IMG/VR virus record: IMGVR_UViG_3300000292_000047
Length of the DNA: 48,335 bases
Strand: one strand, 5' to 3'
Source of the DNA: a virus
Lineage: Duplodnaviria; Heunggongvirae; Uroviricota; Caudoviricetes
The notes beneath the pieces were generated by a model. That model was not told the origin of the DNA. It worked only from the letters and a program-made list of their open reading frames with translations, and did no database searches. Both the position numbers and the translations under genes were made by a program. This document shows positions 1,009-8,800 of this stretch, piece by piece; positions within the stretch are counted from its first letter, which is position 1, and every line of letters begins with the position of its first letter.

Positions 1009-1084
1009 TGGTGGCCCCTACCGGATTTGAACCGATGACCGTGCGATTATGAGTCGCCTGCTCTAACCACTAAGCTAAGGGGCC
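1009..1084 (-). tRNA. tRNA with CAT anticodon (Met or Ile2), CCA encoded
   Basis: Minus-strand reading GGCCCCT..CTCATAA..GGTTCAAATCC..AGGGGCCACCA; 7-bp acceptor stem, T-arm ATCGG/CCGGT, anticodon loop CTCATAA. Confidence 0.8.
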
Positions 1085-2860: not shown

Positions 2861-2873
2861 TGAAATCCTCGTT

Positions 2874-2906
2874 AAAAAAAAAGCCCCGCCGAAAAAGGCA
2901 GGGCTT
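2874..2906 (-). terminator. Candidate intrinsic terminator (hairpin + U-run on minus strand)
   Basis: agccccgcc-gaaaaa-ggcagggct hairpin followed on minus strand by T-run (plus-strand A9). Confidence 0.5.
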
Positions 2907-3050
2907 CATAAAGCAACAAATTACGCGGTAATCGCTTAACGCAGTTTTACTACGTTAAATGAAACACTACACCCAGTTACCACCTAAAACAAGGTTTCCC
3001 CATAAAAAAACCTTCAAAATGTGGTTAATCGATCAATAAAAAAACAATAC

Positions 3051-3326
3051 TCACAGTAGTGCAGAAAAGAATAGCGGCTTAACTGCTTTCCTCACCTCAC
3101 TAGCGTACATCCCCGCAGCTATCTCAGTTGTGAACAAACGCCCTCCAACTAGCCATGCAACAGGTGCAGATGCCAGGGATGCCAGTGCAATTTCATCTGT
3201 AGCAAGCTCTCTTTCAAGATATTCACGAAATCCGGGGTTAATAGTTACCGTATCCAACATTCTCTGGCGCGCTTCCTTACGTTCACGAATATGGGCAATC
3301 AATTGCTCTTTGGTAAAAGTAGCCAT
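3051..3326 (-). CDS. Hypothetical protein, member of tandem paralogous family
   Basis: Internal ATG at 3324-3326 gives MATFTKEQLI N-terminus shared with 3328-3741 and 4017-4466; IALASL motif. Confidence 0.45.
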   Translation of the reverse strand: MATFTKEQLIAHIRERKEARQRMLDTVTINPGFREYLERELATDEIALASLASAPVAWLVGGRLFTTEIAAGMYASEVRKAVKPLFFSALL

Positions 3327-3327
3327 A

Positions 3328-3741
3328 TCACTTCCCTTTCCCCTGAAGCATGGCGGCGCGGCAGGCATTCCAGCCTGTAGCGTATGCAGCCGCTTTGCTG
3401 CTGCCTTCAACTGGCGCATCCTGCCAATACATTTCTTCCGGCACTACCGGCGCTGGCAAGGCAGCGTGATAGTAGAGTGGCATAGTTTTGTACAGTGGTT
3501 CGCCAGGACTTCCGTCAACCTGATTCCATTCTTCAACCCAGGCATCAACAACCGCTTTGCTGGTTGATACATGTTCTTCTGAATCTACATTTTGTCCTGA
3601 TATACAGAACATAACTGCCTCTGCTTCCAGCGATGCCAGAGCAATTTCATAAGCCCGACGCTCAATATTGTCTCGGACGTCCAGGCTGCCTATGCGCTCT
3701 TTGATTTCTTTAATCAGTTCTTTGTCGGTAAAAGTAGTCAT
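3328..3741 (-). CDS. Hypothetical protein, paralogous family member
   Basis: 137 aa; MTTFTDKELI N-terminus, IALASLEAEAV motif, Pro-rich C-terminal region similar to 4017-4466. Confidence 0.5.
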   Translation of the reverse strand: MTTFTDKELIKEIKERIGSLDVRDNIERRAYEIALASLEAEAVMFCISGQNVDSEEHVSTSKAVVDAWVEEWNQVDGSPGEPLYKTMPLYYHAALPAPVVPEEMYWQDAPVEGSSKAAAYATGWNACRAAMLQGKGK

Positions 3742-3751
3742 GTGTTAGTCC

Positions 3752-4015
3752 TTATCCTGCTGTGCTTTCAACTGATGAGGGGAACAAAATCTTTTCATCA
3801 AACCCTGCATTCATATCATGGACAGCAACACACCAATCCATTGACGAACGATTATCAAGAGCCTCCATGATTTCATCCATGCGGCGCAGGTCATACAGGT
3901 AAATGCTTTTATCGCCAATGGTGTAAAAACCAATTTTTTTCGGTGATGGGCAGCGATCAAGAACGTCCTGTAATTCGTTCAACCATGCCCGTTCTTTTTT
4001 TGTTAAAGTTGCCAT
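3752..4015 (-). CDS. Hypothetical protein (shares MATLTKKE N-terminal motif)
   Basis: 87 aa ORF; start context gccatatcactctcctttga shared with neighbours. Confidence 0.45.
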   Translation of the reverse strand: MATLTKKERAWLNELQDVLDRCPSPKKIGFYTIGDKSIYLYDLRRMDEIMEALDNRSSMDWCVAVHDMNAGFDEKILFPSSVESTAG

Positions 4016-4016
4016 A

Positions 4017-4466
4017 TCACTCTCCTTTGATGCGAATGTTTACAGCCTGACAAGCCTCTTCGAGAACCCAGTCAACAGCGTCTTTCCATGCTCCGGTTTC
4101 GACTGGCGGATTTTCACGCTTAACCTGTTCATAGAAGCGCACTGCTTTAATCAATCCTTCTGGTATCAGTGGCACAGGCGGGGGAGTGAATAACGCCTGA
4201 ATTTCATAGCTCGGCCTGTCGTTGCAATCCTCTTTTGTCGGTACATATTTCCAGTCACCAACCCACGGCTCCCCCTGAGAGTCCGTAACGCCTTTTTTCA
4301 CGTAGCGATATCGCCACGCGACTGGCTCTGCTTCCAACGATGCCAGTGCGATACGAAACACATTGGCAAGCAGACTGCTTGAAGATTGGTTATCGTGCGC
4401 CGGGTCGCTCAGGAAGCCTGTGATGAATGATTTAATCTCCGCACGTTCTTTGGTAATAGTGGTCAT
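4017..4466 (-). CDS. Hypothetical protein, paralogous family member
   Basis: 149 aa; MTTITKERAEI, IALASLEAEPVAW motifs. Confidence 0.5.
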   Translation of the reverse strand: MTTITKERAEIKSFITGFLSDPAHDNQSSSSLLANVFRIALASLEAEPVAWRYRYVKKGVTDSQGEPWVGDWKYVPTKEDCNDRPSYEIQALFTPPPVPLIPEGLIKAVRFYEQVKRENPPVETGAWKDAVDWVLEEACQAVNIRIKGE

Positions 4467-4672
4467 TTATTAATCCTCAAAACTTTATGCCCGGGCGCAA
4501 AAGCACGCGTTTTGTCTTTGCTTATTCGCCAGCCATCCTTGCGCGCCTCTTTTGCACAGCCTGCCCATGACGTACCGATATACTCACCGAAGTCTGGCGA
4601 CTGATATTTACCATTTGTACACTGACGACAATCACAGTAGAGATGCATGGTGTAACTTGCGGCAACAGCCAT
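4463..4672 (-). CDS. Small Cys-rich hypothetical protein
   Basis: ATG at 4670-4672 with AGGAGA SD; 69 aa, HLYCDCRQC...AGC pattern. Confidence 0.4.
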   Translation of the reverse strand: MAVAASYTMHLYCDCRQCTNGKYQSPDFGEYIGTSWAGCAKEARKDGWRISKDKTRAFAPGHKVLRINK

Positions 4673-4673
4673 A

Positions 4674-4865
4674 TCACTCTCCTTTAGTACGCAAGTGGTT
4701 TTTCCAGCGGTTTTGCGCCGCGCTGCGCTTATCTTTGACTCCCTCTCTGGCAATTCCAGAAAATGAAAACAACACCACACGGCGATTGCTAACTCTCAAC
4801 CACTGGCTGGGGTAGCAAAGTCTGTATACACGGGAAATAAGCATCTTTGCTTTACGGTTTTTCAT
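4674..4865 (-). CDS. Small basic hypothetical protein
   Basis: ATG at 4863-4865 with GGGGG SD; stop forms TGATATG junction with next gene. Confidence 0.3.
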   Translation of the reverse strand: MKNRKAKMLISRVYRLCYPSQWLRVSNRRVVLFSFSGIAREGVKDKRSAAQNRWKNHLRTKGE

Positions 4866-5101
4866 CGTTTGCCCCCTGCTTTTCTGCCCTTAACACCATG
4901 CGAGAACCATCATCCAGCTCCCAATTGATTTCACCGCCTTCTGCCATGACAAGATGCCAAACGAGTTGTGCGGCCTCGTTGGTTACATCACAACCGCGAT
5001 CATTGCCTACACGGCGTTTTGTTCCGTCACCTAAATCGCGCATTTTGGCCAACACGATGGTTTTTGATAGCGGTGAAAAACCAAGCTGTAGCCGTGCGGA
5101 A

Positions 5102-5731
5102 TTACTCACTGGTTGCCCCCTGAATACGTTTAAACTCAATTACCCATACCCACGGGTTAGATAGCCAGTTCTCTTGCCCGTAAATACCGCGCCAGATATC
5201 ACCAAAGCCAACGCGATAAACAGCTTCCGGCGGTGTAATCTTGTACGTCGCCGGAGATGCGCCTTCCGCTTTAGCATCTGCCTCGCTCATGTCATGCAGC
5301 CGTTCCACACGCACGTCGGTAATTTCCAGCAAAATACGTGAAGCCCAGCGCGGCATGTGAATCGACGGGGTCCAGCCCTCAGCTGGCTTGCTACTATCTG
5401 AGTAATCAGCCTTGTAATCACACAGTTCAGAAGCCAGAGAGACACCATCTTTGATTTCCTGAATGACATCGTTATCCAGCCAAAAAGCGTTGAATGTTTC
5501 ACGGACCCATATGCGATCACCAACGTTACCGAACGGGCATAAACCATGTTCCGGTGCATCCATAACGTGGGTATAGACACCATTGCGTTTCTTTGTCGGT
5601 TTACGGATAACCAGGCAGTTATCGGCCCTGACATTTTTTACAGGTCGACGAGTCTGCGTCTTCCTGCCTTCGAGGATGGCCCTGACCATCGCATCATTAA
5701 AAATCATGCCGCGCTCTTTCATCTTGCTCAC
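5102..5731 (-). CDS. Hypothetical protein, ASCH-like (start uncertain: GTG 5731 / ATG 5722 / ATG 5707)
   Basis: MIFNDAMVRAILEGRKTQTRR and GDRIWVRETF motifs recalled from ASCH-domain proteins. Confidence 0.45.
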   Translation of the reverse strand: MSKMKERGMIFNDAMVRAILEGRKTQTRRPVKNVRADNCLVIRKPTKKRNGVYTHVMDAPEHGLCPFGNVGDRIWVRETFNAFWLDNDVIQEIKDGVSLASELCDYKADYSDSSKPAEGWTPSIHMPRWASRILLEITDVRVERLHDMSEADAKAEGASPATYKITPPEAVYRVGFGDIWRGIYGQENWLSNPWVWVIEFKRIQGATSE

Positions 5732-6093
5732 TTCAACTCCTCCCGACGACGTTCCTGAAGCTCTAGCATTGCGGCTCGGAAATCCTGCCACCATTCCTCA
5801 TCGGCTACTGGGGTGTTCCGCTCCAGCACCTTGTCCGCATCGGCGATCAGGTTTGCCAGACTCTTGTCTGAAATCTTCGTTACCGGAGTCGTTGGTTGCT
5901 CAACCTGCCCGATAGGTTTTATCGTGCTCAAAAGGAGGCGACGGCGGGAAAGTGGTGCCCCACAACGACGGCCATCTTCCTTGCGATATGTTTCTTTCGG
6001 ACCAACACACCAGGTTGTCGGCGTCTCGCGCAACTTCACTTTTTTCTCACCATCATTGGTAATGATTATTCCGGTATGTGTTTTGATGCTCAT
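5728..6093 (-). CDS. Hypothetical protein
   Basis: 121 aa; ATG 6091-6093; ATGA overlap with upstream gene. Confidence 0.45.
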   Translation of the reverse strand: MSIKTHTGIIITNDGEKKVKLRETPTTWCVGPKETYRKEDGRRCGAPLSRRRLLLSTIKPIGQVEQPTTPVTKISDKSLANLIADADKVLERNTPVADEEWWQDFRAAMLELQERRREELK

Positions 6094-8066: not shown

Positions 8067-8399
8067 TCAGATCTCCCGTATCGTGACGGGATAAAGCGCC
8101 TCTACCTGCTTTTTCTTCATGATGTAGACGTCTGTTCGCACACCTTTAGTGTCGACACAATCAATCGTCCCATCGTCATAAAACACCATGAAATCAAGTT
8201 TATAAACGACACCACCTGGCAGATGAAAAGGCACCTGCATAAGAAACGTCACAACGCGGCCAGCTTTTCTCAGTAGCTTCAGTTCGCAGTAGTAATCAGC
8301 CTCTTTTTTGCTATCAAAAGCGATATCATCGACAACCGTTTTTTTATTGCCGTATTTGCTTTTCCTGGTCGCTGGTTTGCGAAAGCCGGTATATCTCAT
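8067..8399 (-). CDS. DUF1064-like phage protein
   Basis: 110 aa; SKYGNKKTVVDDIAFDSKKEADYYCELKLL motif typical of this lambdoid nin-region family. Confidence 0.55.
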   Translation of the reverse strand: MRYTGFRKPATRKSKYGNKKTVVDDIAFDSKKEADYYCELKLLRKAGRVVTFLMQVPFHLPGGVVYKLDFMVFYDDGTIDCVDTKGVRTDVYIMKKKQVEALYPVTIREI

Positions 8400-8800
8400 T
8401 TGGTATCCCCTGGTACTTCACCAAGACTAAGATCAAACCCAATTTCGTCTTTAACTGACTGCGGCAACAGCTCCCACGTCTGCGCACACAAAAATTCATC
8501 TGTGCCATAACGCTCAACAAAGCGAGCACAATTACTCAGGGGAGGGTGACGAACGGCAATATGCGGAGGCACACGCCCACCACCAGGCACAACACCGCGA
8601 TGATGTGGTGCGCACAACCCAAAGCTATGGAAGTGGCAATTCTCATCAACGCTGCCGTAATCAGGATCGTGATGTAGCTCCGTCCACAGCTCTGGATTCT
8701 CAATTTCACGGCCATCAATAATGCAAGCTATGCAACCCACGTGAGTGAGCACCGCTTGTATATAAAGTTTCTCTTTCTTCGTTGGTGTACGTCCGTTCAT
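8396..8800 (-). CDS. Cys/His-rich putative zinc-binding protein
   Basis: 134 aa; CIACIIDG...ELHHDP...HFHSFGLCAPHHRG. Confidence 0.45.
   Translation of the reverse strand: MNGRTPTKKEKLYIQAVLTHVGCIACIIDGREIENPELWTELHHDPDYGSVDENCHFHSFGLCAPHHRGVVPGGGRVPPHIAVRHPPLSNCARFVERYGTDEFLCAQTWELLPQSVKDEIGFDLSLGEVPGDTK

Follow-up and report, generated by a model that had tools for sequence, protein, structure and literature searches.

Positions 3,051 to 4,672 of the viral record IMGVR_UViG_3300000292_000047, the whole 48,335 nucleotides (nt) of which were analysed and are referred to here as the window, hold five small genes on the minus strand, named g5, g4, g3, g2 and g1 in the order in which they are transcribed. 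Three of them (g1, g2 and g4) belong to one family of modular proteins, whose modules recur in many combinations and whose homologies break off sharply at short conserved sequences, termed joints here, and the slot that the five genes occupy differs in content between otherwise near-identical phage-plasmids. Because the joints are the sole DNA common to unrelated partners, and because homology breaks at their edges, we consider it likely, with a probability of about 0.7, that this is a variable accessory slot in which both the array and its individual genes were assembled by homologous exchange at the joints, rather than by duplication in place. The slot, with its tightly packed, coupled small genes, would then be filled from a pool common to the temperate phages of enterobacteria. 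The family of g1, g2 and g4 has relatives in the N-terminal parts of DUF551 and Ead/Ea22-type proteins and is built like beads on a string, a pattern widespread among enterobacterial prophages. The joints form a series, consisting of the first seven codons, a hinge of 39 nt, a PLY/Pro-rich linker, WNACRAAML and a gene end of the form …(GIR)IKGE, stop codon, one base and ATG, and would act as crossover sites for phage or host recombinases.

Three of the five array genes belong to one family

An earlier note on this DNA had proposed a tandem family of four paralogs, g1 to g4. The shared N-termini that it described are present, the four starts reading MATFTKEQ, MTTFTDKE, MATLTKKE and MTTITKER, yet only g1, g2 and g4 are related, g3 and g5 being members of separate families. 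The three related genes combine an M-x-T-[IFL]-T-[KRD]-[EK] start with a helical hairpin and, at about residue 35-60, a hinge, which is the IALASLEAE-PVAW motif correctly noted in three genes and which in g1 and g2 is a variant (ASAPVAW, EAEAVMF) of IALASLEAEPVAW. BLASTP comparison returned E values of 2e-5 for g1 with g2 and 2e-6 for g2 with g4 (28% identity over 125 amino acids (aa)), and the match of g1 to g4 was limited to the 13-aa hinge. All three match PHROGs 5117, 660, 60 and 3323 (E 1e-22 to 7e-4), with g1 matching PHROG 5117 at E 1e-22 and g4 matching PHROG 660 at E 4e-54, and the only PHROG matched by g3 is 1714 and by g5 is 926. When compared by hhalign with a profile of 104 hinge-bearing genes (described below), g1 aligned over 78 columns with 96% probability (E 1.6e-9), while just 8 residues of g3 aligned, with 2.5% probability. 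A similarity confined to the start context is thereby refuted for g1, g2 and g4; it does describe g3, which shares the first eight residues and the intergenic junction, and g5, which shares the junction alone. The hhalign score between sequence sets A2 and A3 is inflated, since 12 of the A2 sequences came from the g2 search and chimeras are present in both sets, and that comparison was used only for motif order.

The layout of the modular family consists of an N-terminal helical hairpin with the start M-[TS]-T-[IF]-T-[KR]-E, the hinge IALASLEAEPVAW, a short beta module ending in PL[YF], a Pro-rich linker and, optionally, the WNACRAAML helices. The 149-aa product of g4 (4017..4466, minus strand, as are all array features given here) comprises the hairpin, IALASLEAEPVAW, a beta module running from RYRYVKKG to EIQALF (RYRYVKKG…EIQALF), a Pro-rich linker and two helices, and ends in NIRIKGE. 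All of the joints are found in g2 (3328..3741, 137 aa), namely MTTFTDKE, IALASLEAEAVMF, PLYYHAALPAPVVPEE and GWNACRAAMLQG, followed by a KGK ending that contains the ribosome-binding site for g1. The shortest of the three, g1 (3051..3326, 91 aa), directly precedes a conserved spacer as the final gene of the array. It has the N-terminal hairpin, the variant hinge IALASLASAPVAW and a short module that runs up to the PLF joint; the gene stops directly after this PLF, and its alignment to a hinge gene of relative L001 (38% identity over residues 1-74) likewise ends at KPLF. Of the two unrelated genes, g3 (3752..4015, 87 aa; PHROG 1714) encodes a single-domain protein with the MATLTKKE start, and g5 (4463..4672, 69 aa; PHROG 926) a Cys-rich protein with an exact copy of the junction upstream. 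The g5 stop overlaps the g4 start (ATGA), and from g5 to g1 this 4-nt overlap is followed by gaps of 1, 10 and 1 nt, a packing that points to translational coupling.

The family of g3 is found as a full-length 87-aa single-domain protein in Chivirus, P22-like, Serratia, Klebsiella, Aeromonas and Vibrio phages, and its MAxLTxxE start is conserved throughout, across unrelated phages. Since the start is kept in distant phages, it is intrinsic to the g3 family and no sign of paralogy. For the same reason the acquisition of this start by recombination with a hinge gene was considered and rejected, as distant g3 homologues retain it.

Identity among g1, g2 and g4 within the array is 28-36%, as against 93-99% to genes of other phages. 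Neighbouring copies are thus not mutual closest relatives, the closest relatives of each gene lying in other phages, and these figures argue that the array was built by cassette exchange and not by local duplication.

Homology breaks at the hinge and modules are reused

The hinge lies at 4314..4352 in g4 (IALASLEAEPVAW), where it is defined by repeat family D2 and breakpoint statistics, and at 3607..3645 in g2 (IALASLEAEAVMF) and 3153..3191 in g1 (IALASLASAPVAW), where it was located by repeat finding, a procedure that recovered the previously noted motifs as DNA families D1-D3. Homologues of g4 and of g2 form more than 2000 clusters each at 90% identity, nearly all of them unnamed and from E. 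coli prophages, and many are chimeric. LASLEAEPVAW is the exact point at which at least 10 unrelated N-termini, one of them Ead/Ea22-like (PF13935), meet the g4 C-part. Segments of g2 reappear in other prophages as parts of DUF551 and Ead/Ea22 proteins, with 90-99% identity. Single-linkage clustering of the C-parts from the homologue list gave one cluster as a result of these chimeras, and a stricter clustering on an independent set was used instead.

This set was obtained by scanning IMG/VR for DNA encoding the hinge peptide, which returned 104 unique genes with products of 63-527 aa. Clustering divided their N-terminal parts into 19 groups and their C-terminal parts into 22, which occur in 42 combinations, and in 4194 of the 5356 gene pairs neither flank of the hinge is related. 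In these 4194 pairs the hinge DNA was 86.8% identical, compared with the 76.3% expected from codon usage with the peptide fixed. The boundaries are sharp in both directions, with homology ending 0 nt after the hinge in 298 pairs homologous upstream and 0 nt before it in 446 pairs homologous downstream. Hinge codons are dominated by single choices, non-preferred ones included (GCA in 94 and TCG in 83 of the 104 genes), with some synonymous variation left. A C-terminal DUF551 domain is present in 53 of the 104 genes, an Rv2179c-like exonuclease domain in one and a dATP/dGTP pyrophosphohydrolase domain in one.

Searched against 1.84 billion representatives, a profile of the N-terminal hairpin plus hinge matched 497 clusters (50% identity) of proteins of 48-340 aa, nearly always at residue 1. 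The exact hinge motif is narrowly distributed, as just seven matches were found among 185,579 species representatives (one genome per species). All are from Enterobacterales except that on L240, a 3274-nt contig of a Segatella copri metagenome bin (Bacteroidota), which is most likely a binning error.

As a separate observation, the hinge written with its commonest codons (e.g. 4314-4352, minus strand) contains GCCGGTGG, which is one mismatch from Chi, and given the codon frequencies roughly half of the hinge copies would carry it. The Chi octamer of E. coli is GCTGGTGG.

Further joints at the start, the Pro-rich linker and the gene end

The gene start, i.e. the first seven codons, is also a joint. 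Across eight sister plasmids the 3' end of g5 is constant, and after this same end and ATGACCACT(A/T)T(T/A)ACC four different N-modules of the hinge family follow, the shared start stretch being the first ~15-20 nt of the gene after g5. The Pro-rich segments that had been seen in two genes were confirmed at 3433..3480 in g2 (PLYYHAALPAPVVPEE) and 4155..4196 in g4 (ALFTPPPVPLIPEG). In 60 of the 104 hinge genes PL[YF] and then a Pro-rich run occur 24-42 residues past the hinge, and this joint divides 13 from 20 module clusters in 27 combinations; the WNACRAAML helix is present in 40 of the 104.

The last joint is the inter-cassette junction, in which the K-G-E codons with a ribosome-binding site, TGA, one base and ATG form the 18-mer AAAGGAGAGTGATATGGC. 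It occurs exactly at 4668..4685, before g5, and at 4011..4028, between g4 and g3, and with two mismatches (AAAGGGAAGTGATATGGC) at 3322..3339, between g2 and g1. Three copies at up to three mismatches compare with 0.05 expected (60-fold), and none of 100 shuffles reached three. The upstream DNA had been described as nearly the same for all four genes, which is accurate for g3 (exact, as it is for g5) and g1 (two mismatches) but not for g2 and g4, which have other start contexts. In IMG/VR, CAAAGGAGAGTGATATG has 94 unique contexts, in which C-termini of 19 clusters upstream are combined with 24 protein families downstream in 48 ways; among the downstream families are those of g3 and g5, hinge genes and a 171-aa protein. 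This 171-aa protein follows the KGE junction in 16 IMG/VR contexts and also at 4485-5000 of Yersinia phage vB_YpM_39 (L247), and some of its residues (…PDAMGF…IEAKCSRAD…) look like a PD-(D/E)XK nuclease-like motif.

Most proteins upstream of the junction end in GIRIKGE, although they are unrelated, and lambda Ea22 is among them. The end of lambda Ea22 (…GIRIKGE) has the identical DNA ATCAAAGGAGAGTGA, while the next gene is absent for 191 nt. All Ea22 proteins have been reported to end in K/RGE, with a significance given as unknown (Dydecka et al., PMC7093339). This previously unexplained ending appears to coincide with a conserved cassette end, at which, in the window, AAGGAG would be the ribosome-binding site of the next gene. 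Within the window g4 and the open reading frame (ORF) at 4674-4865 end in KGE and g2 ends in KGK, while g1 and g3 are without the motif. K/RGE as a general ending of the hinge family was considered and rejected, as it is found in 5 of the 104 genes only, most ending in …QEVK, also with a ribosome-binding site.

The ORF at 4674..4865 (minus strand, 63 aa) ends in …RTKGE, and its last codons, stop and one base form the junction before g5. It has two forms, here and in relatives L003, L006 and L009, which differ in the middle and share the first ~9 and last ~16 residues (MKNRKAK… and …SAAQNRWKNHLRTKGE), and with its common ends and different middle it seems to repeat the mosaic pattern on a small scale.

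The slot varies between near-identical phage-plasmids

The earlier note had also regarded the locus as a hypervariable accessory region, and this was borne out by a comparison of ten near-identical phage-plasmids, which carry eight different gene sets in a slot of 1430-3367 bp, while the holin on one side is 99% and the gene on the other side 97-100% identical. Yersinia phage vB_YpM_39, which was isolated as a virion, carries a further, different arrangement. Of 5,426 complete E. coli genomes, 3,267 contain matches to fragments of the array; no match covering at least 80% of the array was found in these 5,426 genomes or in PLSDB. On its right the slot ends with the stop codon of the last gene, after which a spacer conserved in all relatives begins. 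Neither an integron integrase nor a reverse transcriptase is annotated in RefSeq within ~12 kb around the slot in relatives, attC-like sites not having been searched for.

Several of the gene sets include truncated family members that RefSeq flags as 'partial in the middle of a contig'. The truncated genes lie at 3838-4275 in L002, 4305-4439 and 5035-5161 in L003, 5259-5381 in L004, 3571-3705 in L008 and 3413-3703 in L009; at least some of them are members of the hinge family, and they are probably scars of exchanges or deletions.

Possible selection on the joints and alternative explanations

Several points weigh against assembly by exchange at the joints, or against the roles proposed for the array. 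The exchange is read from sequence, and sharp boundaries would also be expected if the joints were kept purely for protein structure and crossovers elsewhere were selected against. Exact identity of at least 23 nt is present in only 17% of the flank-unrelated hinge pairs and of at least 31 nt in 6%, the median being 14 nt, and the amino-acid invariance of the hinge among the 104 genes is no evidence because the scan fixed the peptide. AlphaFold2 monomer models of g2 and g4 (121-133 homologues) reached a mean predicted local distance difference test (pLDDT) score of 50.5 and 55.1, respectively, which is probably due to alignments that are too shallow and too chimeric, and the domain picture is tentative in view of these poor models. 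The Ea22 analogy is founded on modules shared in relatives and not on a PF13935 match in the window genes, and the functional role of the array proteins is taken solely from this likeness. Likewise, the array genes may be expressed early from a repressor-controlled promoter, for which gene orientation, tight packing and the position of a terminator are the only basis.

Conservation of the joints may serve protein structure, translation or exchange itself, and the strongest alternative holds that the first two suffice, recombination at the joints being an incidental by-product. We give this close to an even chance, and it is compatible with assembly by exchange, since the two agree on the events and differ only in what is selected. 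The roles in question would be those of a helix N-cap (T-x-x-E) for the start, of a helix end and first strand for the hinge, of a flexible linker for the Pro-rich run and of a ribosome-binding site for the gene end. In keeping with them, the low-confidence AlphaFold2 models of g2 and g4 have a helical hairpin ending at the hinge, and place the hinge at a helix-to-strand transition and PL[YF] at the last strand; in that of g4, helices at 2-20 and 29-44 precede a small sheet (W51-F93), a Pro linker and two helices. This explanation is also consistent with the similar start of the unrelated g3 family, with the synonymous variation in the hinge, and with the frequency in these operons of gene ends that carry a ribosome-binding site in other forms, such as …QEVK. 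It is opposed by the excess identity of hinge DNA over the codon-usage expectation, by the dominance of non-preferred codons and by the retention of ATCAAAGGAGAGTGA in lambda Ea22 without a gene following for 191 nt, and it accounts for the conservation but not for the amount of reassortment.

An anti-defence locus, in which small early proteins inhibit host immune systems and their diversity reflects an arms race, is unlikely in our view, albeit not far-fetched. The slot is hypervariable and lies in an early operon, its proteins are small, with swappable C-terminal modules and no enzymatic signatures, and the pyrophosphohydrolase domain of one hinge-bearing relative belongs to a class linked to restriction evasion (PMC10834534). 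However, the proteins resemble no named family: g1-g5 gave no Pfam match at E 0.1 or better beyond chance level, with PF13935 and PF04448 unmatched, and no NCBIfam match, and PADLOC recognised none of the eight proteins encoded in 3051-5794. In addition, the sole characterised relative, Ea22, is described as pro-lysogenic and not as anti-defence (PMC7093339, PMC10834534), and virulent phages of several genera carry members of the g3 family as well.

A more far-reaching proposal, which we hold to be a long shot, is that the joint series is a standardised recombination grammar under selection for evolvability, by which phage recombinases would build combinatorial libraries of host-targeting, possibly anti-defence, proteins throughout the temperate phages and phage-plasmids of enterobacteria. 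The excess of synonymous conservation in the hinge and the retention of the junction in lambda without a following gene would be its signature, and if true it would constitute a homologous-recombination counterpart of exon shuffling or integron cassettes.

True tandem paralogy, i.e. one gene duplicated in place whose copies diverged while keeping their starts and a few motifs, would explain three nearby genes of the same family and motif order, and is nevertheless very improbable. Each copy is far closer to genes in other phages (93-99%) than to its neighbours (28-36%), the unrelated g3 and g5 are interleaved with family members, sister plasmids that are 97-99% identical elsewhere differ in members and order, and the same N-module is found with different C-modules in sisters, as for the g2 N-module in L001. 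That the similarities are short and meaningless, due to chance or to start context only, describes g3 (8 aligned residues) and g5 (junction only) but is scarcely credible for the locus, given the significant pairwise and profile matches among g1, g2 and g4 and a junction 60-fold above shuffles.

Relation to known systems and possible function

The array genes belong to the already known mosaic accessory genes of the Ea22/DUF551 type. Like the Ead/Ea22 genes (PF13935) of the lambda exo-xis region, they are small, non-essential-type early genes of temperate enterobacterial phages with a mosaic build, in which a common N-part is joined to unrelated C-terminal domains, as described for Ea22 (PMC10834534). 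The ends of g4 (…NIRIKGE) and lambda Ea22 share ATCAAAGGAGAGTGA, and in some relatives an Ead/Ea22 N-terminus continues, from the hinge onwards, as the C-part of g4 or g2. Unlike Ead/Ea22, the window genes lack a PF13935 match, are shorter and have a helical hairpin instead of a long coiled coil, and their position in a phage-plasmid, with the early operon on one side and the lysis cassette on the other, is not that between exo and xis. With regard to DUF551 proteins (PF04448; e.g. YfdS of E. coli CPS-53), the N-terminal two-thirds of 53 of the 104 hinge genes have the architecture of g2 and g4, whereas g1, g2 and g4 themselves are without the DUF551 domain and consist of N-terminal modules alone.

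That modules are exchanged at short conserved sequences on their boundaries is a well-established proposal (Susskind & Botstein 1978; Clark et al. 2001, as cited in PMC3029335), although at most mosaic boundaries of phages no sequence of this kind can be identified (PMC3029335). The exact identity required is 23-27 nt for Redβ and 31-34 nt for RecA, Rad52-like recombinases being relaxed in this respect (PMC3945230). The present locus resembles this model in that short conserved DNA stands at gene or module boundaries amid unrelated flanks, at the hinge, junction, start and Pro-rich joint, and in that some partner pairs have exact identity sufficient for Redβ; it differs in that several joints are intragenic, between protein modules, and recur as a fixed series. 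It is a clean natural case of mosaic boundaries at short conserved sequences, a mechanism that is usually not visible. The 'hypothetical proteins' of such loci become readable as a few modules at fixed joints, which permits rational annotation and dissection, and if the joints drive exchange the locus would offer a tractable model for accessory-protein diversification in temperate phages.

As to function, searches of the PDB by sequence and profile (g2, g3, g4, g5 and the family profiles) returned no relative with a solved structure, and a Foldseek search of the PDB with the g4 model gave nothing below E 0.26, a result that is meaningless at such model confidence. The sole relatives with functional data are the Ea22 proteins of lambda and Stx phage, described as non-essential, pro-lysogenic, tetrameric and mosaic (PMC7093339, PMC10834534, PMC10695390); the lambda ea22 gene is non-essential (PMC10695390), and the pro-lysogenic role is described in PMC7093339 and PMC10834534. 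By analogy, and with low confidence, the most likely role of the array proteins would be that of accessory factors that bind to the host and are not enzymes, the N-terminus serving as a scaffold and an exchangeable part binding the target. The helical N-part would oligomerise or serve as a scaffold, the C-part would select the target, and the proteins would tune host physiology or the lysis-lysogeny or maintenance decision.

Genomic context of the array

The window is an essentially complete temperate myovirus, which persists in E. coli as a circular plasmid. Plasmid records of 47-51 kb that are near-identical to it are known, with a ParA gene and an XRE-type repressor, and the structural genes are 98.5-99.7% identical to those of Yersinia phages vB_YpM_39/41/44 and Escherichia phage vB_EcoM-613R2. 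Every gene from 10036 down to 114 is carried on the minus strand. Early genes are transcribed first, followed by those for a Ref-family nuclease, DUF1064, DUF3560, a small helix-turn-helix protein and an ASCH-like protein, and then by the g5-g1 array, a 190-nt spacer with a terminator, the holins, endolysin, spanin, a tRNA and an MT-A70 methylase. This order places the array at the 3' end of a long leftward operon, directly upstream of the lysis cassette.

The spacer (2861..3050, minus strand) is near-identical in nine of nine relatives and bounds the variable slot, beginning right after the stop codon of whichever gene is last. It ends in a strong intrinsic terminator (2907..2880, minus strand), with an 11-bp stem of which seven pairs are GC followed by a run of nine Ts, 20 nt upstream of the holin start. 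As the terminator precedes the holin, the lysis genes must be read through it or started inside the 190-nt spacer, an arrangement that recalls lambda pR'/tR'. Positions 2875-3032 (minus strand) gave a sub-threshold match to the Rfam model of the GcvB small RNA (sRNA; score 32.4 bits, gathering threshold 42, E 4.5e-4 for 12 kb), covering the terminator and a G/U-rich stretch aligned to the GcvB seed region. This part of the spacer could be a phage sRNA or a late-promoter leader, although the match may be due to chance, since several other sRNA models also match the terminator part.

Between the spanin and methylase genes lies a tRNA with anticodon CAT (1009-1084, minus strand), which is assigned to Met by ARAGORN and to Ile in the RefSeq annotation of relatives. 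Finally, the Ref-family gene, at 8396-8800 (minus strand), encodes a recombination-enhancement nuclease and is located ~4 kb upstream of the array in the same operon.

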